DNA of 32,000 bases from Moritella sp. PE36 (GCF_000170855.1 NZ_ABCQ01000035.1:1-32000), one strand, 5' to 3'; shown: positions 3,841 to 21,066, counted from the stretch's first letter. Numbers and translations: made by a program. The notes: generated from the letters alone by a model not told the origin.

Positions 3841-4707
3841 TTAAGCCATTACTTTCTCAATTGTTTTACCCGAAAAAGTCCCTAACACAACATTCTTACG
3901 TTTATCTGAGCGCTGCTTGCGCATGTGAGATGCAATAAAGTCAGCGACTTCATGCGTTTCGAGTGGTTCTTTTTGTACTACGATTATCGGTAATGGGGCT
4001 GTGACTGTTTTTAACCCTGTGACCTTCACAATATTTGCCGCTGGTTGAACCTTAACTGGCCTGCGCACACGTAACTGATGCTCTGCTGTCGTCGCTATTT
4101 GTTGATGAAGCTGTGTTAGTGCCAGCTGATTATCAGGCGTGGCTCTCTCTTTTTCTGCGGTAATTTCCCCTAATAATTTTATCTTGTCAGGTTGGTGTAA
4201 TGAATCTTTACGCTGCCAACTGAAACGTACCGATTTAACATATTCATTTTCCAAGCAATGAATCTTGCGATACAAGTGCACTGTCATTACACCGGGACAA
4301 TTATCATGGATCGCACTGAAACGTGCTTGACGAGATTCATTTTCGCTGACTACCGCATGTTCGATTGCGCCTTTGATAGTATTAATGTCTTCAATTGAAG
4401 TGACGATCTTCGCGCTATTCTGGTTCTCTGGGTGTAAATGAATAATACCTACGTAGCGCCGGGCCGATTTTTGCGAGAAGGGGTGTTTAATATGAATGTC
4501 TTTAAAGGCTTCAGCAGCTAACTTCATCGCTAGCATGTCGGTGACTAACTCGGGCATGATTTGGTTTATGACTGCCTGTTCCTGACCTTTTAGCACAGCG
4601 GGGATCCGGCTGACCAATGCTTGCACTGGTTGTGTGGTCGCTAATAATTTTTCTAATTGTTGCAATTTAGTCGTGAGTTGCTCAAATAAGTTTTTAATAT
4701 CAGTCAT
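3841..4707 (-). CDS. tus: DNA replication terminus site-binding protein Tus homologue
   Basis: Colinear matches to E. coli Tus recalled from memory: [12 protein letters not shown] vs [37 protein letters not shown] vs [33 protein letters not shown] vs [23 protein letters not shown] vs IQHINKLKTTFEHIV. Start placed at the internal ATG 4707 ([10 protein letters not shown]...); the 38 upstream codons of the track ORF look like non-coding read-through. Confidence 0.8.
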   Translation of the reverse strand: [288 protein letters not shown]

Positions 4708-4715
4708 TTTTAATC

Positions 4716-4749
4716 CTAGTATCAATGAAAACTTGGTATTGATAACTAG
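4716..4749. promoter_or_regulatory. inverted repeat immediately upstream of the tus start
   Basis: CTAGTATCAAT (4716-4726) and ATTGATAACTAG (4738-4749) are reverse complements apart from one bulged T, with an 11-nt spacer. They sit 9-42 nt upstream of the tus ATG. Function is inferred. Confidence 0.35.
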
Positions 4750-4944
4750 CATAGTAACGAGTAGACCATCATGCAATAGGGGGCGGGGTTGGGTGATCGT
4801 TATGTGATCATCGCTGATCATTCGTTGATCGATATTGTGGTTTAAATGGCATTGTCATATCGCAACAGCTCATACAAACACTATTGCGAGCGCAATTTTG
4901 CTGCGTAGCTCCACTTACCGATTAATTATCGCCCCCAATACTTC

Positions 4945-6663: not shown

Positions 6664-6908
6664 ATGGAGCTAAGAAGCCATTTAGACTCGAAGATTATCA
6701 AGTCAGGGGCGCTAAGCTTAGGGCTGGATAATAACTTATATGGTACGCATTCGATGAGACGAACAAAAGCTACGCTGATATATGCTCGGACTAAAAATAT
6801 ACGTGCAGTGCAACTGCTTTTAGGGCATACAAAAGTAGATAACACAATTCGATACTTGGCATTGAGATTGAAGATGCCCTGAAGTTATCTGAGGAAACGG
6901 ATAGTTAA
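6664..6908 (+). pseudogene. 3' fragment of a tyrosine recombinase/integrase, frameshifted
   Basis: ...GTHSMRRTKATLIYARTKNIRAVQLLLGHTKVDNTIRYL carries the catalytic HxxR...GH...Y C-terminal box. Only about 70 C-terminal residues remain. The usual ending (RYLGIEIEDALKLSEETDS*) is recovered only by adding 1 nt near 6859. Confidence 0.7.
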
Positions 6909-6992: not shown

Positions 6993-8186
6993 TCACCTTC
7001 TATTTCTTTTTTTAACCTTTTTTTTGACTTTTTTAGGCACTTTTGAAAACTCTTTATGGAAAGGCTGTTCTGTAGCAACAGGAATGGCTTTCCCTATGCT
7101 TTTTTCAATACTATTTAATAACGTTATATCATTTTCTACAGCAAATGAAATGGCTATTCCACTTTTCCCGGCACGAGCAGTTCGTCCTATACGGTGTATG
7201 TAGTTTCTTGGATCTTCAGGAAGGTTATAGTTAATGACTAAAGTAATATTATCAACATCAATGCCACGAGCAGCAACATCAGTTGCAACTAATACGCTTA
7301 AATTAGAATCTTTAAAGTTTTGTAACGCTTCTTCCCTAACTGCTTGTGTTTTACCACTGTGAAGGCTAGCGGCAGTGATTGATGCTTCTTCTAGAGCTTC
7401 AACAATGATGTCAGCGCCAGGCTTTGTTTTACAAAAAATGAGCACTTTTTTATAGTGAGATTTTTCAAGGATATTAAGTAGCAAAGGCACTTTATTCGAT
7501 TTTTCAAGATGGTATACACTTTGATTAATCCGCTCGATAGTAACCGTTTCCGCCGTAATTTGAATTTTTGTCGGGTCCGTTAATATTGCGTCTGCAAGTA
7601 TCTCGATTTCAGCAGGCATAGTGGCTGAAAACAAGAGTGTTTGTCGGTTCTTTGGCAGCTTAGATATGATGCGTTGAACATCCTTAAAGAACCCCATATC
7701 AAGCATTGTATCTGCTTCATCTAACACAAATACTTCTAACGCCTTAAAGTTTATATCGTCGGTTTTAATTAAATCCAATAACCTGCCGGGTGTGGCCACT
7801 AAAATATCAAGTCCAAGTGCGATAGAGTCAACTTGATTTTGTCTTCCTACTCCACCATAAACCACCTTAGTTTTAAGCCCTAAACCATCAGCGTAGTCAT
7901 CAATGTTTTGCATTATTTGCGAGGCAAGCTCTCTCGTGGGCGTTAGTATGAGCGAACGCGTGCTCTTAGCGTTGATATCTATTTTATTTCGCCCAAAATT
8001 ATTGATAATAGGCAATGAAAAGGCCGCAGTTTTTCCTGTTCCCGTTTGCGCTATACCAAGAAGATCATTCCCATTAATAAGAGCTGGGATACATTCTTTT
8101 TGGATTGGTGTGGGCTGTTTATAGCCTTTAAGACTAACGCGGTCAATAATTGACTCTAAAAGTGAAAATTCTTTAAACTCGGACAT
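6993..8186 (-). CDS. ATP-dependent DEAD-box RNA helicase (RhlE-like)
   Basis: Q motif (GYKQPTPIQ), motif I AQTGTGKT, PTRELA, DEAD (VLDEAD), SAT, HRIGRTARAG, and a Lys-rich tail. Start at ATG 8186 (MSEFKEF...) with GAGG upstream. Confidence 0.9.
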   Translation of the reverse strand: MSEFKEFSLLESIIDRVSLKGYKQPTPIQKECIPALINGNDLLGIAQTGTGKTAAFSLPIINNFGRNKIDINAKSTRSLILTPTRELASQIMQNIDDYADGLGLKTKVVYGGVGRQNQVDSIALGLDILVATPGRLLDLIKTDDINFKALEVFVLDEADTMLDMGFFKDVQRIISKLPKNRQTLLFSATMPAEIEILADAILTDPTKIQITAETVTIERINQSVYHLEKSNKVPLLLNILEKSHYKKVLIFCKTKPGADIIVEALEEASITAASLHSGKTQAVREEALQNFKDSNLSVLVATDVAARGIDVDNITLVINYNLPEDPRNYIHRIGRTARAGKSGIAISFAVENDITLLNSIEKSIGKAIPVATEQPFHKEFSKVPKKVKKKVKKRNRR

Positions 8187-8502
8187 GCTGCCTCGGTATT
8201 CTTTAATCAATAGCCTATTATTCTAACAGAATGCTTTAACATATTTAAGACGTATTCAAGGTGACTTTTTCTGACAAATCCTCACAAAAACAGTTCAGTA
8301 ATTAAGTGTTCTGAGCCTTATAGAACAAAGCATGTAGATTGGATTTACGTTCGGCCTTAGGTCAGCCCAGACTGTAATGGTTATGTATTTTATGATTGAG
8401 AATGTTGCTCCTTTTCTCAATGGAGTTAGTGTAACTAAACCAATTGTAATGTTACTTTTGCAGTTGGTATTTACAATTTGTTTTCCAAAATATTATCGAG
8501 TA

Positions 8503-8511: not shown

Positions 8512-8525
8512 AAATGAAGTCAGCG

Positions 8526-8583
8526 CTCTAACACGGTTTTGTCCATCAATGGCTTAGGGTGATAGCTCTAAGCCGAAACTGAC
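8526..8583 (-). repeat. GGCTTAG/CTAAGCC hairpin module (inverted copy)
   Basis: CTCTAAC-N18-GGCTTAGGGTGATAGCTCTAAGCC-GAAACTG aligns with the reverse complement of 16618-16670 (CTCTAAC-N15-GGCTTAGCGCTATTGCTCTAAGCC-GAAGTTG). Both contain a 24-nt hairpin of the same geometry. Confidence 0.65.
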
Positions 8584-8849
8584 CCTTTCTGCGTTAAAGA
8601 AGTTACTCACTTATAATATATTCATATCGATTTGTCATATATTTTCTCATGCATTATTTATAAGGTATCCACCTGCACTTAAACGCTTAATAAATTAAAC
8701 TGACAAAACTACCGTTTTATCCAAAAAAACATACGATTTTTCAATTGCACATTTAATTGTGTCCCCCAGTGTTATTTGATAATAGTATTCTCGTTTTGCC
8801 AGTTAATTCAGCTCGGTTTAAAATGAAAAAAGAAATGCTGCCACTATAA

Positions 8850-9861
8850 TAATCATGGATGTAAGGCATACAGAATCGGTAGTAACCTCCCTAAAAACGG
8901 GGGGGACATTCCAGAAATCACGTAACTAACCTCATCATAGAAACGATCAATGACCAAATTAAAAACATCTCTAAAATTGAGCATTATCGCCATCGAAGCT
9001 TGCATGGTGTTATGTTGAACTTGCTGGTTGGTCCGGTTGCGTATTGCCTAAAACCGATCTGATGTTGAGTATTAACAGCATGACATATATCCTTGATCGC
9101 CCCATCATTCGTCCCCAGTGTTGTGCTGAAGTATTTGCATAATGCATAATGCAATATGTACTTTGTTATATCGCATTGCAAATTGCGAATTATACATTTC
9201 AAACTACGATTTTATTGTTTCTTGAGAACACTTCTAAGTTAGCCCATCATCATTCTACATTACCAATCATCGTGCTACCTCTGATAACCGAGATCCTTTA
9301 ACTACATTGAAGTTCATATAGATAGGATATTCTTCTTCATTCGTTGAAACTAATGCTATGAAAAGGGTCTTATTTTCGGAGCCTCGCACTCGCTTCCCAC
9401 CATGACGTTCACTGTCATAATAAACATCATCTACTTGAATGACACCAGATAGTAGTCGCTTGTCATCCCGCTATTTCATGATCTGCATGGTTTTTTGCTT
9501 AATTCTTCAAGCTGAATTGTAAGAGGCACCAATTTGATGTTTAAGTGATAATGCTTATATGCCAATTTAAACTTGAATGCTTAATAAACACTTATAAAAC
9601 AATTCATTACAGGTCATGTTGAATATTTGGACATTGTGTTAGTGATAACAGACGTTTGGTGGTGACTGCGATTACATTGATAAATATTTCTTGATTTTAA
9701 TGAGCAATAGCGATGAGAAGAGCATGCAAGACAGATAAAACCATCAGGCCATTTCCAGTTGAACAGAGCCTCAATACATTGTTCTTCTGAGGCATAATCT
9801 TTGAATAGTTCCAGTAAACTATACCCTTGGTGCTGCTGAGTTTACTTTTTCTCGTAGCCAT
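8850..9861 (-). mobile_element. degraded IS1595-family (ISXO2-like) transposase pseudogene
   Basis: Minus-strand translation across several frames gives MATRKSKLSSTKG.., ELFKDYASEEQCIEALFNWKWPDGFICLACSSHRYCSLKSRNIYQCNRSHHQTSVITNT (zinc-ribbon N-terminus), IGASYNSA.RIKQKTMQI, RDDKRLLSGVIQVDDVYYDSERHGGKRVRGSENKTLFIALVSTNEEEYPIYMNFNVVKGSR, and PPRF.GGYYRF (cf. LPRYLAEFCYRFNRR). Many stops and frameshifts. The lower boundary is approximate. Confidence 0.65.
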
Positions 9862-10169
9862 AATCTTCACAACGTATCACTATAAATATAGTTTTTTTGA
9901 GTTAATAGTGGTTGAGTTAAGTGGGTAACCAGGAAGTCTTATTCATTAAAATTTTCCAGTTGGCGTAAACATTGCTTCTTTTAGAATTGAAGATCGGTTT
10001 TCGTGAAGCTATAAACCGCGCTTTGCCAAAAGGATATCGAGCCATCGGTAATCTCAATCGATTAATTATAGTAATGTATTTTTACCACTAATTCACTAGC
10101 TTTTGTATGATTATTGTAACAATTAACATTTATTTTTTATGCATCTAATCTATAAACATAAAGCTAACC

Positions 10170-13100
10170 ATGCCGAATGATAATAAATTGATTTTAAAGG
10201 GGTTAATAGTGAATTCAATACTAAAGAATTGGCTTTTTGTTCTGCTTTCGTTTGCATTGTTTGGTTGTAATGATCCAAATGGTAGCACAATGAAACGTGT
10301 TATTTATGTCGACGAAAATTCACAAGTTGAATTAACATCAGCTTATGTAGCAACCTCCAATACTGACCATATTGAATGGCGACAAATTAGTGGTAAATCG
10401 ATTGAATTGTCGGATGTTAATAGTTCTACGTTAGTGTTCTTCTCACCAACGACAGAGACTAAATTAACATTGGAGTTTGAGTCTACGGTACTTAGCTCTG
10501 TAGGTAATATGGTTACGGAAATTGTGACAGTGGTGGTGGTTCCTTACATCACAGGATTAGTGATAGATGACCCTCTTATTGGTGCAACAGTTCGCTTATT
10601 ATCATTCGACAGTTCAACAGAACATGCAAGTACAATTACAGATGAAAATGGACGTTACCGCTTTTCCAATACTCTAAATCTAAACAGATATAAGCTAGTG
10701 GTTGATGCTCAGACTGGTTTCATGTCTGATGGCTCTGTGTTTGAAGCCGAAATGAAGGCTGTATGTATTAATAGTACTGAACGTCATGATTGTAACATTA
10801 CACCTATTAGTACCTTTATTGCACACCACCTTGAGCAAACAGCCGATATGGAATCGAAAGAAGAGGCTGTAGTTCAAATAGAGCTGGCATGGAATATAGA
10901 CTTATCTCTAGACCCTTTTGTCCATGAAATACCTGAGATAAATACGGGCAGTACATTTAAGGCGGATGATATTCGCATATTTTTGGATAATGGTCGACAG
11001 ATTTCTACATGGCTAGACAATATGTCTGCTCATGTTACCCAAATTATTGAACAAGAGGAAATTCTCCCAGCAGAACAAGATGATATTAATAGCTGGATTG
11101 ATTTCAAGCGTGAAGCTGGTATCCCACTCATCGCTGGGCCTACAGTTAATAAATCTGTGGGTGATATGGGATATCGACAAGAGGCAACCGCAGGGAATGG
11201 AGGTGCAATAACCTATACTTCATCCGATCACGCGGTAGCTATGGTTGATAGCAGTGGTAATGTAACAGTCTTAGATGCGGGTACTGCAACAATCACAGCG
11301 ATAGAAGCACAAAGTATGAAATACCTAAGCCAAAACGATGCATACACCTTAATCGTAGCACGAGGTGATGGCACTCTATTGAGTGCAGGGACTGACATCA
11401 GTAAAACCACCGATGATGGATCCTTTACTCAAGTAGCTTCTGGCGGCAACGGGGGCGCTATTACCTACGCTTCATCCGATACGGCTGTTGCCACTGTGAA
11501 CGATAGCGGCGTGGTCACGCTTGTTGGCGCGGGCGAAACCACTGTTACTGCCAGCGAAGCACAAACCGCGAGTTACCTGACTCAAAACGACGCATACACC
11601 TTAACCGTAACACGAGGTGATGGTACGCTATTGAGAGCTGGGACTGACATCAGTAAAACCACCGATGATGGATCCTTTACTCAAGCCGCTTCTGGCGGCA
11701 ACGGGGGCGCTATTACCTACGCGTCATCCGATACAGCTGTTGCCACGGTGAACGATATCGGCGTGGTCACGCTGGTTGGCGCGGGTGAAACTACTGTGAC
11801 TGCCAGTGAAGCGCAAACCGTTAATTACCTGACTCAAAGCGATGCGTACACCTTAACCGTAGCTCGCGGTGATGGCACTGGATTAAATGCAGGCGTGGAC
11901 ATGAATAAAACCACCGATGATGCATCCTTTACTCAAGCCGCTTCTGGCGGCAACGGGGGCGCTATTACCTACGCGTCATCCGATATGGCTGTTGCCATGG
12001 TGAACGATACCGGCGTCGTCACGCTGGTTAGCGCGGGTGAAACCTCTATTACTGCCAGCGAAGCGCAAACCGCGAATTACCAGACTCAAAACGACGCATA
12101 TACCTTAACCGTAACACGAGGTGATGGCTCGCTATTGAGTGCAGGGACTGACATCAGTAAAACCACCGATGATGGATCATTTACTCAAGCAGCTTCTGGC
12201 GGCAACGGGGGCGCTATTACCTACGCGTCATCTGATACGGCTGTTGCCACGGTAAACGATACCGGCGTCGTCACGCTGGTTGGCGCGGGCGAAACCACTG
12301 TTACTGCCAGCGAAGCACAAACCGCGAATTACCTGACTCAAAACGATGCATACACCTTAACCGTAGTACGAGGTGATGGCACTGGATTAAATGCAGGCGT
12401 GGACATGAATAAAACCACCGATGATGCATCCTTTACTCAAGCCGCTTCTGGCGGCAACGGGGGCGCTATTACCTACGCTTCATCCGATACGGCTGTTGCC
12501 ACTGTGAACGATAGCGGCGTGGTCACGCTTGTTGGCGCGGGCGAAACCACTGTTACTGCCAGCGAAGCACAAACCGCGAGTTACCTGACTCAAAACGACG
12601 CATATACCTTAACCGTAACACGAGGTGATGGTACGCTATTGAGAGCTGGGACTGACATCAGTAAAACCACCGATGATGGATCCTTTACTCAAGCCGCTTC
12701 TGGCGGCAACGGGGGCGCTATTACCTACGCGTCATCCGATATGGCTGTTGCCATGGTGAACGATACCGGCGTCGTCACGCTGGTTAGCGCGGGTGAAACC
12801 TCTATTACTGCCAGCGAAGCGCAAACCGCGAATTACCAGACTCAAAACGACGCATATACCTTAACCGTAACACGAGGTGATGGCTCGCTATTGAGTGCAG
12901 GGACTGACATCAGTAAAACCACCGATGATGGATCCTTTACTCAAGCAGCTTCTGGCGGCAACGGGGGCGCTATTACCTACGCGTCATCTGATACGGCTGT
13001 TGCCACGGTGAACGATATCGGCGTCGTCACGCTGGTTGGCGCGGGCGAAACCACTGTTACTGCCAGCGAAGCACAAACCGCGAATTACCAGACTCAACAC

Positions 13101-15032
13101 GACGCATATACCTTAACCGTAACACGAGGTGATGGCTCGCTATTGAGTGCAGGGACTGACATCAGTAAAACCACCGATGATGCATCCTTTACTCAAGCCG
13201 CTTCTGGCGGCAACGGGGGCGCTGTTACCTACGCTTCATCCGATACGGCTGTTGCCACGGTAAACGATACCGGCGTGGTCACGCTGGTTGGCGCGGGTGA
13301 AACTACTGTGACTGCCAGTGAAGCGCAAACCGTTAATTACCTGACTCAAAACGATGCATACACCTTAATCGTAGCACGCGGTGATGGCACTCTATTGAGT
13401 GCAGGGACTGACATCAGTAAAACCACCGATGATGCATCCTTTACTCAAGTAGCTTCTGGCGGCAACGGGGGCGCTATTACCTACGCTTCATCTGATACGG
13501 CTGTCGCCACGGTGAACGATATCGGCGTGGTCACGCTGGTTGGCGCGGGCGAAACCACTGTTACTGCCAGTGAAGCGCAAACCGTTAATTACCTGACTCA
13601 AAACGATGCGTACACCTTAACCGTAGCTCGCGGTGATGGCACTGGATTAAATGCAGGCGTGGACATGAATAAAACCACCGATGATGGATCCTTTACTCAA
13701 GCAGCTTCTGGCGGTAACGGGGGCGCTATTACCTACGCGTCATCTGATATGGCTGTTGCCACTGTGAACGATATCGGCGTCGTCACGCTGGTTGGCGCGG
13801 GCGAAACCACTGTTACTGCCAGCGAAGCACAAACCGCGAGTTACCTGACTCAACACGACGCATATACCTTAACCGTAGTACGAGGTGATGGCTCGCTATT
13901 GAGTGCAGGGACTGACATCAGTAAAACCACCGATGATGGATCCTTTACTCAAGCCGCTTCTGGCGGCAACGGGGGCGCTATTACCTACGCTTCATCCGAT
14001 ACGGCTGTTGCCACGGTAAACGATAGCGGCGTCGTCACGCTGGTTGGCGCGGGTGAAACTACTGTGACTGCCAGTGAAGCGCAAACCGTTAATTACCTGA
14101 CTCAAAACGATGCATACACCTTAATCGTAGCACGCGGTGATGGCACTCTATTGAGTGCAGGGACTGACATCAGTAAAACCACCGATGATGCATCCTTTAC
14201 TCAAGTAGCTTCTGGCGGTAACGGGGGCGCTATTACCTACGCGTCATCTGATACGGCTGTCGCCACGGTGAACGATATCGGCGTTGTCACGCTGGTTAGC
14301 GCGGGTGAAACCACTGTTACTGCCAGCGAAGCACAAACCGCGAACTACCTGACTCAAAACGACGCATACACCTTGATAGTGACTCAAGCATCACAAAGAG
14401 TGGAAAGCATTAACTCGAATTTATTTGCTTTTGCCGCACTGCATTCCGACGGATCAGTGACCACCTGGGGGAGTAGCTCCAATGGTGGCGATAGCACGAG
14501 TGTGAGCGACAAGCTTGATGGCAGCAAGCCAGTCGTCAAGGTTGACTCGAATCGCTTTGCTTTTGCCGCACTGCATTCCGACGGTTCAGTGACAACCTGG
14601 GGTGGTGGCTCTTTCGGTGGCGACAGCTCGAGCGTGAGTGACAAGCTTGATGGCAGCAAGCAAGTCGTCAAGGTTGACTCGAATTTCTTTGCTTTTGCCG
14701 CACTATATTCCGACGGTTCAGTGATAACCTGGGGGAATGGCTCTCACGGTGGCGATAGCAGCAGTGTGAGCGACAAGCTTGATGGCAGCAAGCCAGTCGT
14801 CAAAGTTGACTCTACTACCTTTGCTTTTGCCGCACTGCATTCCGACGGTTCAGTGACAACCTGGGGGAATGGCGCTTACGGTGGCGATAGTACGAGTGTG
14901 AGTGACAAGCTTGATGGCAGCAAGCCAGTCGTTAAGGTTGACTCGACTGAGGGCGGTTTTGCCGCACTGTACTCCGACGGTTCAGTGACCACCTGGGGGG
15001 GGGCTCTTACGGTGGCGATAGCACGAGTGTGA
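10170..15032 (+). CDS. giant repeat surface lipoprotein/adhesin, upstream reading frame (1,620 aa as read)
   Basis: Signal and lipobox-like ...WLFVLLSFALFGC/NDP. An alternative GTG start at 10209 has AAAGGGG upstream. Carboxypeptidase-regulatory-like segment (GLVIDDPLIGATVRLL...TDENGRYRF). 13 Ig-like (Big_2-type) units, then WG/GGD 44-aa units. The frame ends at TGA 15030-15032, just after the G9 run. Confidence 0.8.
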   Translation: MPNDNKLILKGLIVNSILKNWLFVLLSFALFGCNDPNGSTMKRVIYVDENSQVELTSAYVATSNTDHIEWRQISGKSIELSDVNSSTLVFFSPTTETKLTLEFESTVLSSVGNMVTEIVTVVVVPYITGLVIDDPLIGATVRLLSFDSSTEHASTITDENGRYRFSNTLNLNRYKLVVDAQTGFMSDGSVFEAEMKAVCINSTERHDCNITPISTFIAHHLEQTADMESKEEAVVQIELAWNIDLSLDPFVHEIPEINTGSTFKADDIRIFLDNGRQISTWLDNMSAHVTQIIEQEEILPAEQDDINSWIDFKREAGIPLIAGPTVNKSVGDMGYRQEATAGNGGAITYTSSDHAVAMVDSSGNVTVLDAGTATITAIEAQSMKYLSQNDAYTLIVARGDGTLLSAGTDISKTTDDGSFTQVASGGNGGAITYASSDTAVATVNDSGVVTLVGAGETTVTASEAQTASYLTQNDAYTLTVTRGDGTLLRAGTDISKTTDDGSFTQAASGGNGGAITYASSDTAVATVNDIGVVTLVGAGETTVTASEAQTVNYLTQSDAYTLTVARGDGTGLNAGVDMNKTTDDASFTQAASGGNGGAITYASSDMAVAMVNDTGVVTLVSAGETSITASEAQTANYQTQNDAYTLTVTRGDGSLLSAGTDISKTTDDGSFTQAASGGNGGAITYASSDTAVATVNDTGVVTLVGAGETTVTASEAQTANYLTQNDAYTLTVVRGDGTGLNAGVDMNKTTDDASFTQAASGGNGGAITYASSDTAVATVNDSGVVTLVGAGETTVTASEAQTASYLTQNDAYTLTVTRGDGTLLRAGTDISKTTDDGSFTQAASGGNGGAITYASSDMAVAMVNDTGVVTLVSAGETSITASEAQTANYQTQNDAYTLTVTRGDGSLLSAGTDISKTTDDGSFTQAASGGNGGAITYASSDTAVATVNDIGVVTLVGAGETTVTASEAQTANYQTQHDAYTLTVTRGDGSLLSAGTDISKTTDDASFTQAASGGNGGAVTYASSDTAVATVNDTGVVTLVGAGETTVTASEAQTVNYLTQNDAYTLIVARGDGTLLSAGTDISKTTDDASFTQVASGGNGGAITYASSDTAVATVNDIGVVTLVGAGETTVTASEAQTVNYLTQNDAYTLTVARGDGTGLNAGVDMNKTTDDGSFTQAASGGNGGAITYASSDMAVATVNDIGVVTLVGAGETTVTASEAQTASYLTQHDAYTLTVVRGDGSLLSAGTDISKTTDDGSFTQAASGGNGGAITYASSDTAVATVNDSGVVTLVGAGETTVTASEAQTVNYLTQNDAYTLIVARGDGTLLSAGTDISKTTDDASFTQVASGGNGGAITYASSDTAVATVNDIGVVTLVSAGETTVTASEAQTANYLTQNDAYTLIVTQASQRVESINSNLFAFAALHSDGSVTTWGSSSNGGDSTSVSDKLDGSKPVVKVDSNRFAFAALHSDGSVTTWGGGSFGGDSSSVSDKLDGSKQVVKVDSNFFAFAALYSDGSVITWGNGSHGGDSSSVSDKLDGSKPVVKVDSTTFAFAALHSDGSVTTWGNGAYGGDSTSVSDKLDGSKPVVKVDSTEGGFAALYSDGSVTTWGGALTVAIARV
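11115..14388 (+). repeat. 13 tandem in-frame 252-bp (84-aa) units: Big_2-like Ig domain plus linker
   Basis: Unit: GDG(T/S)LLSAGTDISKTTDD(G/A)SFTQ(A/V)ASGGNGGAITYASSDTAVATVND.GVVTLVGAGETTVTASEAQT..YLTQNDAYTLTV.R. GGTGATGG phase markers at 11364, 11616 and 11868 give a period of exactly 252 bp. Array boundaries are approximate. Confidence 0.9.
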
Positions 15033-15715
15033 GCGACAAGCTTGATGGTAGCAATCCAGTCGTTAAGGTTGACTCGACTGACAGAGGTTTTGCCGCACTG
15101 CATTCCGACGGTTCAGTGACCACCTGGGGGGATGGCTCTGACGGTGGTGATAGCAGCAGTGTGAGCGACATGCTTGATGGCAGCAAGCCTGTCGTCAAGC
15201 TTGACTCGACTGGTTATGCTTTTGCCGCACTGCACTCTGACGGTTCAGTGACCACCTGGGGGTTTAACTCTGGCGGTGGTGATAGCAGCAGTGTGAGCGA
15301 CATGCTTGATGGCAGCAAGCCAGTCGTCAAGGTTGACTCGACTCGCTATGCTTTTGCCGCACTGCACTCTGACGGTTCAGTGACCACCTGGGGGGATGAA
15401 AGGTACGGTGGCGATAGCAGCAGTGTGAGCGACAAGCTTGATGGCAGCAAGCCAGTCGTCAAAGTTGACTCTACTAGCTATGCTTTTGCCGCACTGCATT
15501 CCGACGGTTCAGTGACAACCTGGGGGCATAGTTCTTACGGTGGCGATAGCAGCAGTGTGAGCGACAAGCTTGATGGCAGTAAGTCAGTTGTTAAGGTTGA
15601 CTCGACTGGCTATGCTTTTGCCGCACTGCACTCCGACGGTTCAGTGACCACCTGGGGGTATGGAACTTTCGGTGGCGATAGCACTAGCGTGAACGCAAAA
15701 TTAACAGGCACGTTA
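14415..15715 (+). repeat. 10 tandem 132-bp (44-aa) WG/GGD units (RCC1-like/beta-propeller-like by inference)
   Basis: Unit: S..(F/Y)AFAALHSDGSVTTWG....GGDS(S/T)SVSDKLDGSKPVVKVD. TTTGCTTTTGCC at 14424 and 14556 gives a period of 132 bp. The array runs straight across the frame break at 14995-15003. Confidence 0.85.
14995..15003 (+). repeat. G9 homopolymer at the frameshift point of the adhesin gene
   Basis: ACC ACC TGG GGG GGG GCT CTT ACG... Paralogous units read TGG GGG nnn GGC TCT TAC GGT GGC GAT. G10 would restore ...TTWGGGSYGGDSTSVSDKL... in frame. Confidence 0.95.
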
Positions 15716-16009
15716 AGCGATTACTATGATTACCACGACACTGATAGAGACGGCATACCAAATATCGATGAATTAGGTACATGTAGTGTGCCATATTCCA
15801 TAGCATCAGAAGACTTAGGTCACCCCCCTTGCCAAAGCGCTGGGGAGCCAGATTCGGATGGAGATGGCGTTTGGGATAACGTTGAAGGCACGAATGGCTC
15901 GAATCCATTGAAAGCATCGTATCAGGACTCAAATAATGATGCCAACGGAGATGGTTCACCAGATAGTTGGATATTGCCTGATGATGGCCTGAATGTACCA
16001 ATTCTATAG
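15029..16009 (+). CDS. downstream reading frame of the same adhesin gene (326 aa from the track; frame is open from the G9 run)
   Basis: Continues the 44-aa units in register, then a Ca-binding tail with thrombospondin-type-3-like DxDxDG motifs (DTDRDGIPNIDE, DSDGDGVWDNVE, DANGDGSPD). The track 'start' is an internal GTG with no independent SD. Confidence 0.75.
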   Translation: MSDKLDGSNPVVKVDSTDRGFAALHSDGSVTTWGDGSDGGDSSSVSDMLDGSKPVVKLDSTGYAFAALHSDGSVTTWGFNSGGGDSSSVSDMLDGSKPVVKVDSTRYAFAALHSDGSVTTWGDERYGGDSSSVSDKLDGSKPVVKVDSTSYAFAALHSDGSVTTWGHSSYGGDSSSVSDKLDGSKSVVKVDSTGYAFAALHSDGSVTTWGYGTFGGDSTSVNAKLTGTLSDYYDYHDTDRDGIPNIDELGTCSVPYSIASEDLGHPPCQSAGEPDSDGDGVWDNVEGTNGSNPLKASYQDSNNDANGDGSPDSWILPDDGLNVPIL

Positions 16010-16031
16010 AGTGACAATAATTAATCCGATG

Positions 16032-16079
16032 TTAGAGTCAAAGATACCTATCAGCCTGACTCTAATATCGGTGTTTTTT
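16032..16079 (+). terminator. possible terminator hairpin after the adhesin gene
   Basis: TTAGAGTCA (16032-16040) / TGACTCTAA (16057-16065): 9-bp stem with a 16-nt loop; T6 at 16074-16079 but 8 nt from the stem. Non-canonical. Confidence 0.3.
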
Positions 16080-16427
16080 AAGACAGTTGGCACTCATTTA
16101 GCTAATTTTTATACCGCTTCTTTCATCAGTTTATCTGAAACTGAATTTACTGCTGACATATCCTTTAAAACTATCGCTGCGCTACATTATGTAAGCAATT
16201 ACGGGAGCTATTTTGAGATAGCTAGAGATATTGACATGGATAGCATGAATAGTAGGGGGGTGACTTGTCGGAGAGCGTTTCCACACAGTACTCAGGAAAA
16301 ATAAACGTTTCATTTGAGGAGTTACAATCTATCGAAACCATTGAACCTATAATGCAGAACTTAATTGATGGCGACCAGTATCAATCGTGTTAGATATTGA
16401 TATGGCAACAATAGTCGAAACTGTTGC

Positions 16428-16553
16428 ATAATAAAAGCATTTAAGAGGGATTTAAAACGCGTGGCATTCGCGATTTGAATCCACTTTTGTGTTTACGGTG
16501 GTCAAATTCAGTTTTGGGGTAGGCATTTTCCACCCCTTAATGCGGCGTTGGTA
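16428..16553 (+). other. attC-like integron recombination site, VCR-like, ~126 bp
   Basis: ATAATAAAAGCATTTAAGAGGGATTTAAAACGCGTGGCATTCGCGATTTGAATCCAC...CCACCCCTTAATGCGGCGTTGGTAA. The 5' arm (GCATTTAAGAGGG) pairs imperfectly with the 3' arm (CCCCTTAATGC). Length and both ends resemble the Vibrio cholerae repeat as I recall it (..AACAAACGCCTCAAGAGGGACTGTCAACGCGTGGCGTTTCC...CCCCTTAGGCGGGCGTTA). Confidence 0.6.
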
Positions 16554-16559
16554 ATTTGC

Positions 16560-16581
16560 CCATACTTTCTGTAATGCGAAC
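16560..16581 (+). repeat. 22-bp repeat core CCATACTTTCTGTAATGCGAAC (copy 2)
   Basis: 21/22 identical to 6508-6529. It starts 7 nt after the GTTGGTA end of the attC-like site. Confidence 0.7.
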
Positions 16582-16601
16582 CGTGTGCTTTGAAGTTTAT
16601 A

Positions 16602-16670
16602 CTCTAAGCCATTTTTTCCAACTTCGGCTTAGAGCAATAGCGCTAAGCCGTTTCTGCCCATCACGTTAGA
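16602..16670 (+). repeat. GGCTTAG/CTAAGCC hairpin module (three interlocking arms)
   Basis: CTCTAAGCC (16602-16610), GGCTTAGAG (16626-16634) and CGCTAAGCC (16641-16649): the middle arm can pair with either flank. Followed by ...CACGTTAGAG. Homologous in inverse orientation to 8526-8583. Confidence 0.65.
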
Positions 16671-16972
16671 GTGATAACTCATTCACAGGCTGTTAATGCT
16701 ACTTTTCGATACCCGAATTTATGCGAGGTGAAGAGTGTTGCTAAGTGTCAGCTAAGCTCCGTTTCTCCCAAAACCGAGCTTTGCGCAAGACTTGCTGGTT
16801 TTTGAACTGCCGCTATTTCAGGTTCGCTTTCGGTGAACGTGTACTTTAGAAGCTATCTCGCTTTCGCCTCAAAATCGACTTAGAAATCGATTTTGGAAGA
16901 GCCTACATTAATGATTGCTTACCACCCCCTTCGGCAGCCCATTGGTCGCTAACGGACCCGAAGCGGACACTG

Positions 16973-18181
16973 TTATTTTTTAACTAGTGAGGGGACTATT
17001 TTTATGAGATCTGTTCCTCGGATTTGGATGCCGTCTTCAGTCACCGCTGTAAGCTCGACAGTGTATTCTCCTTGTTCAATCATAAATTTCGAGGTTTCAA
17101 TGCCGCAAACCAAATCCATAAAACCATCACGGTTGACATCTCTTTCTTGGCACATATAATTCCTGCCAGCAAGCCTTACGTTAGCTCCCGACAGCCATAT
17201 AGTTTCCTCATCGATTGTTAGCGCATCAAAGGTTTGGGAACTCAGAATAGCGAGGTGGGTCACCCCAGCCGAATTGAGGTTGATCGTATTTTTCCTATTG
17301 CCGGGCTTCAGATCTATCGTCACTTTAATTGCTGTGGGAATTTGTAACGCGATCCCCCACGGTGTATCTAATCCGCTGGTAACGAGATCTTCTATTAAGG
17401 TACCATCAAAATTTGCCCTTTGAATCTTGTTATCGTTATTGTTGGTCCAGTAAATTTTTCTGTCCTTAAGGTCGAGTGCAATTCCAATCGCTCCACTGAA
17501 CTGAAACTCCGGATTAGCATCTGTACCGTCTAACTTAGCACTCCAAATCCAGTTACCTTGTGCCTAATACATCCTTCCGCGCGGTACATCCAGAGCGATA
17601 CCTTGCGGAAAACTTTGCCCTGAAACAAGGTCTTCTAACTCTGAACCGTCCAAATTGGCACGCTGTATCTTATCCGTAAGCGTGTCCGTCCAGTAAATTT
17701 TTCCAGCATTAATATTGATGGCAAGTCCACGCGGGTCTCCCAAGCCAGTAACTATATCTTCAATGTTCGAGCCATCTAGATTTGATCGCTGAATTTTGTT
17801 CGTGACTCCATCAGTCCAGTAGATCTTTCCAGCCATAAGATTCAAAGCAATACCCGAAGGACCCGGTAGTCCATGGACCAGGCTGTTCTCGACATTACTC
17901 CCATCAAGGTTCGCGCGACGGATACTTCCGATGTCGGTCCAGTATACCTTGCCTCCTGCGATGTCCAGTGCAATATAACGAGGATTTAGGCTTGGTGGAG
18001 TGACTAGAAGTTTGACGTTACTGCCGTCCAAATTGGCTCGTAGAACTTTCGCTACCGCATTTCCTGAATTATTAGAATCAGAGAAATATATCTTTCCAGT
18101 TGAAGCCGAAAATGTAAATCCGCTTATTAAAGTGCTAACCAAAATAAGTGTCGGAAGTATACCTAACGCTTTCATTTTCAT
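16973..18181 (-). pseudogene. secreted six-bladed YWTD (LDL-receptor class B-like) beta-propeller protein, interrupted by one in-frame TAG
   Basis: Signal peptide MKMKALGILPTLILVSTLISGFTFSA. Blade motifs YFSD, YWTD, YWTD, YWTD, Y*AQ, YWTN, each followed by (I/K)(Q/R)RANLDGS. ORFs 17564..18181 and 16973..17323 are in the same frame, and 17324-17563 is open in that frame. The only stop is TAG at 17564-17566, at the Trp position of blade 5. Confidence 0.8.
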
Positions 18182-18753
18182 GGTGAAACCCTCTAGTGCA
18201 TGTGTGTTTTACTTATACACTACAAGTAAAGTGTATAAGTAAAATCGGCCTCGGATTTACATTCAGTCCAATATGCTTTTTCAGCTTGCTATGGACTGAG
18301 TATCTATCAAATGATAGTTCATACACACATTTATATTATGGTTATCAGCAAGGTTTAATAGTTCCGGAAATAATTAGAAAAGATAGGCATCTAAAAAGCA
18401 TGAGTTAAGTCGTCGGGCGAAATGTGACGCTTATTAAAGATAACTGTGGGGACTCTCGTGTTATTCGCTCAGATCAAGATTACGAAATATTGATACTGCC
18501 AAATAGTCTTTGTTTCAAGCCTAGATGTAACTTAGTTAATTGAAAATAAACAATTTAATTTTTATGTGTCTATTTACACGGGTTACACGGGTCCGTATAA
18601 ATAGGGTTCTTGTTTACGTTCTGATTTTATTTGATAGAGACCCATTATTTTTCCATATCCATTTGTAATTAATGATAAATTTGATAGTGTTGATGGTAAT
18701 TAAATTGAAACGGAATTCCGTGTAATTAAACTTTATACCTCTGGGGGTAATTC

Positions 18754-19173
18754 GTGACGCAAATTGAACATTTAAATATCACTGTTCCAAATATAGATGA
18801 AGCGATAAAGTTCATTCAGATAGTCGCTCCGGATTTCAAGGTAAGAAAGGATGAAAAACCACTTTCCAGTTATCGTTGGGCTCATATAGGTAATGATGAA
18901 TATTATTTTGCTCTTCAAGAACCACATATAGGCTCAGAAGCAGATAAGCCACGAAAAACATATAAGAATTATGGTGTTAACCATATTGCTCTTGTCGTTG
19001 ATGATATTTCAAAAATTGAAAATGAGTTAGTAAAAGCTGGATATAAACGGAGTATTGAAACTCCTACAGAGAAATACCGTAAGAGATTGTATTTCTTTGA
19101 TAATTTCGGCTTCGAGTGGGAATTGGTTGAATACACCTCCGAGAATCCTAGCGAAAAATATTTATATGAATAA
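18754..19173 (+). CDS. VOC family (glyoxalase/bleomycin-resistance/dioxygenase fold) protein; cassette-like
   Basis: 139 aa. IEHLNITVPNIDEAIKF... and GVNHIALVVDDISKIENELVKAGY...YFFDNFGFEWELVEY are typical VOC half-domains. GTG start. An attC-like site begins 3 nt after the stop. Confidence 0.75.
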   Translation: MTQIEHLNITVPNIDEAIKFIQIVAPDFKVRKDEKPLSSYRWAHIGNDEYYFALQEPHIGSEADKPRKTYKNYGVNHIALVVDDISKIENELVKAGYKRSIETPTEKYRKRLYFFDNFGFEWELVEYTSENPSEKYLYE

Positions 19174-19175
19174 AA

Positions 19176-19227
19176 ATATAGCAAGCGCCTGTAATCTGAC
19201 TTCCGTCAGTTGAGGCGGACGTTATAA
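19176..19227 (+). other. short attC-like site (~52 bp)
   Basis: ATATAGCAAGCGCCTGTAATCTGAC-TTCC-GTCAGTTGAGGCGGACGTTATAA. The arms pair imperfectly (ATAgCaagCGCCTgtaatCTGAC vs the reverse complement ATAaCgtcCGCCTcaaCTGAC). It ends in the canonical core GTTATAA (19221-19227); the inverse core is ATATAGC versus an ideal TTATAAC. Confidence 0.5.
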
Positions 19228-19239
19228 CTTTCGCATTTA

Positions 19240-19539
19240 ATGGCGTTTACGAAATGGATATTCAATCAATTCACAAAGCGTCATGTCATTGTTGCTTCAA
19301 TACCACTTGATGGTATAAAAGTTATTAAAGGCTCTGAATTGTTGAGCTTGTATCAATTTAATACGAAAACAGCGAAACACTATTTTTGTTCTAAATGTGG
19401 CATTTACACTCATCATCAAAGGCGTTCAAACCCACAACAATATGGTTTTAATGTCGCTTGCTTAGAAGGTGTTAATCCCTTAACGCTAGAAAATGTTCCA
19501 ACATATGACGGTGTTAACCACCCAGTAGATCGTATGTAA
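19240..19539 (+). CDS. GFA (glutathione-dependent formaldehyde-activating/CENP-V-like) family protein, apparently N-terminally truncated
   Basis: LSLYQFNTKTAKHYFCSKCGIYTHH...YGFNVACLEGVNP...PTYDGVNHP matches the C-terminal two-thirds of GFA-family proteins. The N-terminal Cys-rich zinc-ligand region (CxC...CxCxxC) is absent. An in-frame TAA at 19225-19227 inside the upstream attC-like core prevents extension. Confidence 0.65.
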   Translation: MAFTKWIFNQFTKRHVIVASIPLDGIKVIKGSELLSLYQFNTKTAKHYFCSKCGIYTHHQRRSNPQQYGFNVACLEGVNPLTLENVPTYDGVNHPVDRM

Positions 19540-19542
19540 AAG

Positions 19543-19644
19543 TTATAACCAGGCGTTTAAACGGCACAAAACAGTTGACTCTTTCCCGCTTCGCTACACC
19601 GTTATAGCCAACAATTATCTGCCGCTTAAACGGATGCGTTACTT
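19543..19644 (+). other. attC-like site (~102 bp)
   Basis: Inverse core TTATAAC (19543-19549), 4 nt after the GFA stop. The 5' arm AACCAGGCGTTTAAACGGCA pairs with the 3' arm TGCCGCTTAAACGGATGCGTT. Ends GTTACTT (19638-19644). Confidence 0.6.
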
Positions 19645-19791
19645 AGCTCTTGGAACGTTACGTCGAATAAAACTCGGTCTATTCAGGGATTTAATGACAT
19701 TACCGCAGGTGTAGAACGATTTAACTAACTTAACAGGGCATAAATACGCTAAAATAGCCGGCTATTATCTTATTTTGAGCTCTATATATTA

Positions 19792-21066
19792 ATGACCACT
19801 GTAACAGCACCTGCAAACTTTACTGAACTTGGCCTTATTTCACCTTTATTAACTCGATTGACTGAGATGGAATATCTGCAGCCAACGCCAATTCAAGCAC
19901 AAGCTATCCCAAGTGTATTAGCGGGACGTGACTTAATTGCAGGGGCTAATACCGGCTCGGGTAAAACAGCTGCATTTGCACTGCCATTATTGCAGCAACT
20001 ACATACTGAAAAACAATTGAGTGACACCAGCAGCAAAGGTAACTATGTTACTGGACTAATTTTGGTGCCTACCCGTGAACTCGCTATACAAGTTGCTGAC
20101 AGCATTAAATCTTACGCAGCACATTTAAACGGCGCGATTAAAACGCTTGCTGTTTTTGGTGGTGTATCTGCGAATACGCAAATGCTCGCATTACGCGGCG
20201 GCACAGATATTTTGGTTGCAACGCCTGGTCGATTACTCGATTTGATTTCAAGCAATGCGATTAAGCTCGATAGAGTTAAAACCTTAGTGCTAGATGAAGC
20301 CGATCGCATGTTAAGCCTCGGTTTTACTGAAGAGCTATCTGCGCTATTGGCATTAACGCCAAAGCAAAAACAAATTTTATTATTTTCAGCAACTTTTCCT
20401 GAGCAAGTTCAAGCTTTAACTCAAGAATTGCTAAATGACCCTGTTGAAATTCAATTGCAAAGTGCAGATGCCAGTACCTTAGTACAGCGCGTATTTACTG
20501 TTACTAAAGGCGAGAAAACAGCCTTGTTAGCGCATTTGATCAAACGACATGAATGGCGACAAGTGCTTATTTTTGTTAATTCTAAACACAGCTGTAATCA
20601 CTTAGCGGACAAACTTGCTAAACGTGGCATTACCTCGCAAGTGTTTCATGGCGATAAAGGTCAGAGCGCTCGTATTCGTACACTTGACGGCTTTAAAGCT
20701 GGCCAGGTTCACGTACTAATCGCAACCGATATTGCTGCACGTGGTATCGATATTGAAAAACTACCTGTCGTGATCAACTTTGACTTACCAAGAAGCCCAT
20801 CAGACTACATGCACCGTATTGGTCGAAGTGGCCGTGCTGGTGAAGTTGGCTTGGCGTTATCGCTTATCGATCATGAAGATTATCATCATTTCAGCACCAT
20901 CGAAAAGAAGAACAAGATCCGACTTGAGCGTGAGCAAGAAGTAGGGTTTGAAGTCGATGACGCTGTCGAAGCATATATACCGATGGCGCCACCTGAAGGC
21001 AGCGGTAAGAAAAAGCGTAAAAATAAAGCGCCTGTGAATGCTGATATCTGGTTGAATAAATCTTGA
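19792..21066 (+). CDS. ATP-dependent DEAD-box RNA helicase (RhlE-like)
   Basis: 424 aa. YLQPTPIQ, ANTGSGKT, PTRELA, VLDEAD, SAT, ARGIDI, HRIGRSGRAG, and a Lys-rich tail. Confidence 0.9.
   Translation: MTTVTAPANFTELGLISPLLTRLTEMEYLQPTPIQAQAIPSVLAGRDLIAGANTGSGKTAAFALPLLQQLHTEKQLSDTSSKGNYVTGLILVPTRELAIQVADSIKSYAAHLNGAIKTLAVFGGVSANTQMLALRGGTDILVATPGRLLDLISSNAIKLDRVKTLVLDEADRMLSLGFTEELSALLALTPKQKQILLFSATFPEQVQALTQELLNDPVEIQLQSADASTLVQRVFTVTKGEKTALLAHLIKRHEWRQVLIFVNSKHSCNHLADKLAKRGITSQVFHGDKGQSARIRTLDGFKAGQVHVLIATDIAARGIDIEKLPVVINFDLPRSPSDYMHRIGRSGRAGEVGLALSLIDHEDYHHFSTIEKKNKIRLEREQEVGFEVDDAVEAYIPMAPPEGSGKKKRKNKAPVNADIWLNKS

Follow-up and report, generated by a model that had tools for sequence, protein, structure and literature searches.

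A probable integron cassette array without an integrase, short and partly decayed, in the tus-glg segment of a Moritella-like chromosome

The DNA analyzed here, a stretch of 32,000 nucleotides from Moritella sp. PE36 (termed the window), very probably carries a short and partly decayed integron cassette array that lacks an integrase (CALIN) and that appears to be fixed in the hypervariable tus-glg segment of a Moritella-like chromosome. CALINs are defined by two or more attC sites that are spaced by less than 4 kb and have no intI in their vicinity (PMC4889954); in the window, three sites on the + strand begin at 16426, 19176, and 19543 with gaps of 2.6 kb and 0.3 kb, and no integron integrase lies within 4 kb of them, so that the locus is a CALIN by the published definition. 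A preliminary description of this DNA had read it as a CALIN-like cluster of two sites, and that reading is borne out by the attC models, by boundaries at G/TT, by the occurrence of both cargoes as cassettes beside integron integrases elsewhere, and by the want of an intI. Its two sites have both been recovered, but the count was too low, a third site lying upstream of them (Table 1).

Table 1. Coordinates of the array features, counted from the first nucleotide of the window
Feature	Coordinates	Strand	Length	Remarks
Third attC, Vibrio VCR-like	16426–16554	+	~129 nt	Top match of all three models
Conserved non-coding leader	18585–18732	+		Directly upstream of the VOC cassette; attI-like in position
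VOC cassette	18733–19221	+	489 nt	ORF 18754–19173 plus its own attC
Element 1, short attC	19176–19228	+	~53 nt	2 bases past the VOC stop codon
GFA cassette	19222–19638	+	417 nt	
Element 2, long attC	19543–19644	+	~102 nt	3 bases past the end of the GFA ORF

Structure of the attC sites and their recovery by covariance models

An integron integrase recombines the folded bottom strand of an attC site with attI or attC at G/TT (the slash marking the point of recombination), and each unit of the window, a promoterless ORF with its downstream attC, would first have been captured by such an enzyme. Recombination at G/TT would explain why the VOC unit starts with TTATAC.. and the GFA unit with TTATAAC.., and why each of them stops at the G of the GTT that follows. 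The first ORF, whose stop codon occupies 19171–19173, encodes a protein of the VOC/glyoxalase fold (Pfam PF00903/PF13669), and the second, ending at 19539, is placed by Pfam in the GFA family; both cargo assignments of the preliminary description are thereby confirmed, as is the layout that it gave for the two ORFs and their elements, including the coordinates and the GTT and TTATAAC ends.

An attC site was taken to consist of an inverse core R'' (RYYYAAC) and a core R' (GTTRRRY) that are able to pair, and its fold was taken to comprise an L''/L' stem, unpaired central spacers of 5 and 6 nt, and extrahelical bases on the bottom strand. In element 2, R'' (TTATAAC, 19543–19549) is followed by a 5-nt spacer (CAGGC), the L'' arm GTTTAAACGGCA (19555–19566), a central region, the L' arm TGCCGCTTAAAC (19620–19631), a 6-nt spacer (GGATGC), and R' (GTTACTT, 19638–19644). 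Both AAC and GTT are present at the ends of this element, R'' and R' pairing at four Watson-Crick positions and one wobble position out of seven, and its L stem runs through 13 contiguous pairs without an extrahelical (bulged) base; a stem of this kind is atypical for active attC sites. Element 1 has ATATAGC as R'', in which AGC replaces AAC, and GTTATAA as R' (19221–19227), and its stem is formed by GCGCCTGTAATCTGAC and GTCAGTTGAGGC, with two extra bases on the 5' arm, the canonical side. The boxes and unpaired bases that had been ascribed to both elements are accordingly present in part: the cores and spacers of element 2 and the extra bases of element 1 conform to the attC layout, but the AGC of element 1 and the unbulged L stem of element 2 depart from it. 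The third site lies on the same strand as the VOC/GFA cluster, 2.2 kb upstream, and is preceded by small or degenerate ORFs only (15993–16304 and fragments); its R'' is degenerate (GCATAAT, with AAT for AAC), its R' reads GTTGGTA (16547–16553), and by blastn it resembles the attC sites of Vibrio arrays (L044, L043, L033, and L029).

Folding of the bottom strand as DNA gives hairpins that are moderately better than those of shuffled sequences for element 1 (z −2.3) and for element 2 (−17 kcal/mol, z −2.2 to −2.5), in keeping with the palindromes noted earlier. The minimum-energy fold of the third site contains no long-range hairpin (z −0.9), for which reason this site is probably decayed. Four copies of the palindromic octamer GTTATAAC are present in the window, where 0.67 would be expected, and two of them are located at the two cassette junctions. 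A search of the window against Rfam, a collection without any attC family, matched no family.

The attC covariance models were home-made and trained solely on attC sites of complete integrons, with every Moritella, Psychromonas, and window sequence excluded from training. The seed was the integron of Vibrio amylolyticus (L029), in which an integrase of 460 bits on TIGR02249 (cut-off 265) is followed by attI and five cassettes, and 80 metagenomic intI loci were gathered with an alignment of IntI proteins; the five Vibrio sites gave model R1, the 17 sites that it led to in the metagenomic loci gave R2, and a further round with 53 sites gave R3. R2 was run unfiltered on both strands of the entire window, and the three best attC matches all lie on the + strand, each shortly 3' of an ORF, namely the third site (36.8 bits, E = 7.5e-7), element 1 at 19176–19228 (25.6 bits, E = 4e-4, rank 2), and element 2 at 19543–19645 (17.1 bits, E = 0.049, rank 3, marginal by score alone); the fourth match in the window drops to 12 bits (E = 0.9). 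With R3, the same three sites remain on top (24.1 bits for the third site and 21.5 bits for element 1), and the copy of element 1 in the homologous locus L001 scores 27.8 bits. The narrower R1 gives the third site 53.9 bits (E = 1.8e-8) and, being too narrow, leaves elements 1 and 2 unseen. The E-values of such home-made models are rough, those of element 2 being 0.049 and 0.19. All three sites are recovered in this manner, element 2 marginally, and the attC identity proposed for the two elements is upheld by models derived from independent complete integrons.

R2 behaved as a detector of attC: in the metagenomic loci, 45 of its 47 matches are on the other strand from intI, and over 1.11 Mb of other loci all of its matches, with E up to 10, fall in Vibrio arrays or in the M. 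viscosa attC. When 14 family and window sites were aligned to R2, 87% of the cells were paired and 12 of 18 pairs were double-changed, the alignment itself being fitted to the R2 model; among the controls, the observed covariation score and percentage of pairing were matched by no shuffle, the double-change count was matched by 4 of 500, and slid registers paired at 27–52%. A rule-based attC finder using AAC/GTT anchors and arm pairing was set aside as non-discriminating, since it returned about 15 matches per strand in identical lists for both strands and missed element 2, and a regular expression for VCR-like sites found the array in L029 only.

Homologous cassettes in other genera

For the identity of the attC sites and cassettes, the comparative evidence is stronger than the model scores, and element 2 is identified mainly through its homology to attC sites of real cassettes. 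In the marine contigs L167–L170, a GFA homologue (P0144, 80% identical) occupies the first cassette position next to an integron integrase, and the integrase of L167 reaches 466 bits on TIGR02249 against the cut-off of 265. The attC of the GFA cassette in L167 scores 46.1 bits with R2 and is homologous to element 2, the two having in common AAGTTATAAC.AG.., ACAGTTG.C...GCCAAC.AT, and CTTAA..G.GCGTTA. The 5' boundary of the GFA cassette, G/TTATAACTTTC, is common to the window (between 19221 and 19222), Agarivorans (L166), and L167, and the DNA upstream of the G is unrelated among the three. In an nhmmer search with a profile of the element 2 family, element 2 obtains 90.9 bits, but it is one of the four sequences from which the profile was built, two of the four being attC sites after VOC homologues in Psychromonas (L006 and L007); independent support is provided by the additional members of the family that lie on the + strand in arrays of Psychromonas (L007 and L011) and Psychrobacter (L008).

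Similarly, the complete integron of V. amylolyticus (L029) includes a VOC homologue among its cassettes, and VOC homologues in Psychromonas, Psychrobacter, Amphritea, and Marinobacterium lie within a few kb of same-strand attC matches with no nearby intI. In the latter genera, the 5' flank of the VOC gene reads ..GAC/GTTATACC..GGAG, which is matched by TTATACC..GG.G in the window. The G/TTATACC start of the VOC cassette recurs in five genera, and at the corresponding junction of the window, T/TTATACC (between 18732 and 18733), the G has been lost. Homology across genera starts and stops at G/TT, as cassette boundaries do.

The 139-aa VOC protein is 60–80% identical across Gammaproteobacteria, Bacteroidota (Polaribacter and other Flavobacteriaceae), a cyanobacterium, and a Fibrobacterota MAG (loci L006–L085). 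No attC matches were found at the non-proteobacterial VOC copies among these loci; hence, the VOC gene seems to circulate both as a cassette and as an ordinary gene.

Genomic setting, related loci, and decay of the array

The array is located between tus (3841–4821) and the glgA-glgC-glgP-glgB genes, and since tus encodes the Ter-binding protein, the locus is near the replication terminus. Two RhlE-like DEAD-box helicase paralogues (6993–8210 and 19792–21066) bracket the variable region, and neither is present at this locus in M. viscosa; the helicase gene at 19792, which the preliminary description had taken for a core gene, is therefore not syntenic core. Locus L001 is 96–99% identical to the window over the common segments and has the same order of leader, VOC, element 1, GFA, element 2, and helicase.

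The two GFA genes are in different states. The gene is intact in L001 (125 aa, the length found also in homologues); in the window, it has lost 79 nt after 19284, and with them the N-terminal Cys cluster. The native start codon lies at 19254, and the ORF listed at 19240–19539 is a frame-fused pseudogene, an upstream ATG having been joined in frame; the GFA family and the cassette nature proposed for this unit hold, but its ORF is an inactivated deletion pseudogene, and the inactivation appears to be very recent. The deletion lies between short GTCATTGT-like repeats, and the L001 GFA protein is 97% identical to the window ORF over the aligned part.

Mutations of cores and junctions comprise the AGC in R'' of element 1, the AAT of the third site, and the lost G of the first junction, and both element 1 and the first cassette junction look as if they had received inactivating substitutions. 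At the same time, the VOC gene is intact, with a dN/dS of 0.08 against M. viscosa, and is under purifying selection. The dS of VOC is 1.07 versus 1.00 for glgP, values that approach saturation, and the distance of VOC to a Psychromonas copy is about the same, so that the case for vertical inheritance is made by synteny and the common leader and not by divergence. Taken in this way, the array seems to be old, vertically carried, and decaying rather than active.

A segment of 10,064 nt in the window (8521–18584) is missing from L001; it splits the cluster, holds the third attC, and is bounded by ACACGG(G)TT repeats. The corresponding position of L001 is taken by an attC of the element 2 family that is truncated at its 5' end. 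The segment includes a GC-rich block (0.52–0.54 versus about 0.39) that encodes a 1620-aa Big_2-repeat protein and an RCC1-repeat protein, and it also carries two minus-strand ORFs, one of which encodes LDL-receptor class B repeats. The whole segment appears to be an island gained by horizontal transfer and inserted within or beside the array.

The leader that precedes the first cassette has a counterpart of 99% identity in L001, and its part from 18627 to 18706 is 81% identical to the M. viscosa sequence just upstream of a different first cassette (GNAT), the similarity ending near TAATTAA(A/G)/TT. A direct repeat, GTAATTAAA (18696–18704 and 18722–18730), flanks a perfect 12-nt palindrome, ACGGAATTCCGT (18710–18721), and a 27-nt stretch of this repeat and palindrome just before the VOC cassette junction is missing from the M. 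viscosa leader; T18732 sits where the G of the G/TT junction belongs. A promoter scan gave promoter-like matches at chance level, and the VOC gene is presumably transcribed from this conserved leader. By its position, the leader may have an attI-like role. It is nevertheless improbable that it serves as a functional attI-like landing pad kept without an integrase, that is, as a terminus-proximal platform of Moritella at which cassettes are inserted and removed by a trans-acting integrase that is encoded elsewhere or arrives on a mobile element. In L001, the truncated attC of the element 2 family (~9386–9455, ..AGTTGGCTG...CCCTTAAGTGGGCG/TTAATC) is found upstream of the leader, behind a poly-G run; given this remnant, the leader may itself be part of an older array, perhaps as a cassette that has no ORF.

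The interval from tus to glgA in M. viscosa (L004) has only two islands in common with the window, the leader (81%) and the VOC cassette (18734–19174, 82.5%). In that species, the leader is followed by the GNAT cassette and then by genes for LysE, a tautomerase, and VOC. A single attC is still recognized there by the model, that of the GNAT cassette, which belongs to the element 2 type (26.7 bits with R2); an element between the tautomerase and VOC genes is 78% identical to element 1. The M. viscosa array differs from that of the window and is more decayed. A group II intron (Rfam RF02005, 83.5 bits) occupies 6897–8760 of L004, starting 3 nt past the G/TT of the GNAT attC, and its RT ORF is seemingly truncated (297 aa). 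IIC-attC introns lie in the bottom strand, opposite the cassettes (PMC3001079); the M. viscosa intron is co-oriented with the cassettes, and membership of that class is consequently not claimed.

Integrase, origin of the array, and related systems

As had been stated in the preliminary description, the window contains no recognizable intI, none being found by Pfam scans of 20 ORFs or by tblastn with three IntI proteins, and the same three queries detected none in the homologous loci L001 and L004. The flanks examined extend to 9.5 kb on the left of L001, through the DEAD-box helicase gene, a GST gene, and tus, and to 10 kb on either side in M. viscosa, and they are likewise free of intI. A complete integron, recognized by TIGR02249 or intI_Cterm beside attI and an array, is found neither in the window nor in L001 or L004, the positive controls L029 and L167 giving 460 and 466 bits. 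The array is most likely the remnant of a larger one whose intI was lost or separated in an ancestor of these Moritella lineages, and not a fresh insertion. With no integrase nearby, the cassettes would now be effectively ordinary chromosomal genes, the GFA gene apparently being lost and the attC sites drifting, and cassettes could be mobilized only by an integrase supplied in trans.

Another, rather unlikely origin is an integrase-mediated insertion at a non-canonical secondary site of the attG type by an integrase located elsewhere in the genome or on a transient element, the locus never having had its own intI. Most CALINs are without a nearby intI pseudogene, and small CALINs can arise by this route (PMC4889954; bioRxiv 10.1101/2022.09.11.507474); the missing intI remnant, the AT-rich leader, and the junctions ..AAG/TT in M. 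viscosa and ..ACT/TT in the window would be compatible with it. However, a stretch of ~3 kb in the window and in L001 accommodates several attC families and remnants, one remnant being upstream of the leader in L001, and in the sister species this spot is occupied by an array of multiple cassettes, so that a fragmenting array fits better than one or two independent insertions; loss of intI is preferred over secondary-site insertion for the same reasons. It is highly improbable that a sedentary chromosomal integron is still complete here, with its intI beyond the limits of the window and the cluster as its distal part, split off by the 10-kb GC-rich insertion or by another rearrangement. The flanks of L001 and M. 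viscosa without intI speak against such an integron, and the mutated attC sites and junctions argue against ongoing integrase activity, even if the cluster is indeed split by the segment missing from L001 and the window covers 32 kb of a 50-kb contig.

The interpretation of the palindromes as ordinary transcription terminators, which had been named earlier as the alternative, or as generic repetitive extragenic hairpins resembling attC is effectively refuted. A terminator scan found neither a T-tract nor a terminator-pattern match at element 1 or element 2, the elements are recovered by attC models trained elsewhere, homologues sit in integron contexts behind cassettes beside intI (L167 and L029), the homology breakpoints fall exactly at G/TT, and the paired arms covary; against this stand the location of the hairpins directly after stop codons and their modest fold z-scores.

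The remnant array resembles the sedentary chromosomal integrons of Vibrionaceae and their relatives, which are arrays of the VCR type, in its chromosomal location, in its small promoterless cassettes (VOC, GFA, GNAT, and tautomerase), and in having attC sites of 100–130 nt from lineage-typical families, the third site being VCR-like and the family of element 2 being common to Psychromonas arrays and a marine intI locus. Unlike those integrons, it has no intI or demonstrable attI, only two or three cassettes, three attC types instead of one homogeneous family, and core mutations. Chromosomal integrons of Xanthomonas occupy a fixed locus with frequent decay of the integrase and cassettes. In a recent preprint, these integrons are described as products of ancient co-evolution present in 93% of genomes (bioRxiv 10.1101/2025.06.18.660453), and the long evolutionary retention of a chromosomal integron is a shared trait; in Xanthomonas, intI or its pseudogene stays beside the array, whereas no trace of intI was found here. 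The cassettes are also comparable to SALIN/attG insertions (bioRxiv 10.1101/2022.09.11.507474) in that they lie outside an integron platform and their left junction is not a canonical attI/attC junction, but they are clustered with attC remnants behind a leader common to two species, and attG insertions are typically single.

With CALINs (PMC4889954), the locus has in common at least two same-strand attC sites less than 4 kb apart with no nearby intI, non-resistance cassette genes of unknown role, a small array, and no intI pseudogene. Nothing essential sets it apart from them, except that here the same locus can be traced in a sister species and one cassette gene has been freshly inactivated. 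CALINs are common, 2961 having been counted in 21,105 genomes and 1362 of the 2961 containing two cassettes (bioRxiv 10.1101/2022.09.11.507474), and 95% of CALINs are without a recognizable intI pseudogene (PMC4889954). The locus is one more among the thousands catalogued and has small general importance; its modest value resides in an array that is traceable in two or three related genomes and that would illustrate how, after the disappearance of the integrase, cassettes may be domesticated (selection on VOC), lost (deletion in GFA), or immobilized (mutations of the attC cores). The attC architecture, moreover, proved to be correctly recognizable from raw sequence alone.

The sole recombinase trace in the window is a 72-aa C-terminal fragment of a tyrosine recombinase, covering the HxxR...H...Y region, which is encoded at 6664–6882, 9.5 kb from the nearest attC. 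It was rejected as an intI pseudogene, since its identity is 73–80% to plasmid recombinases outside integrons (Pseudoalteromonas, Shewanella, and Vibrio) versus 31–40% to IntI, and it points to an earlier insertion of a mobile element into this variable region.
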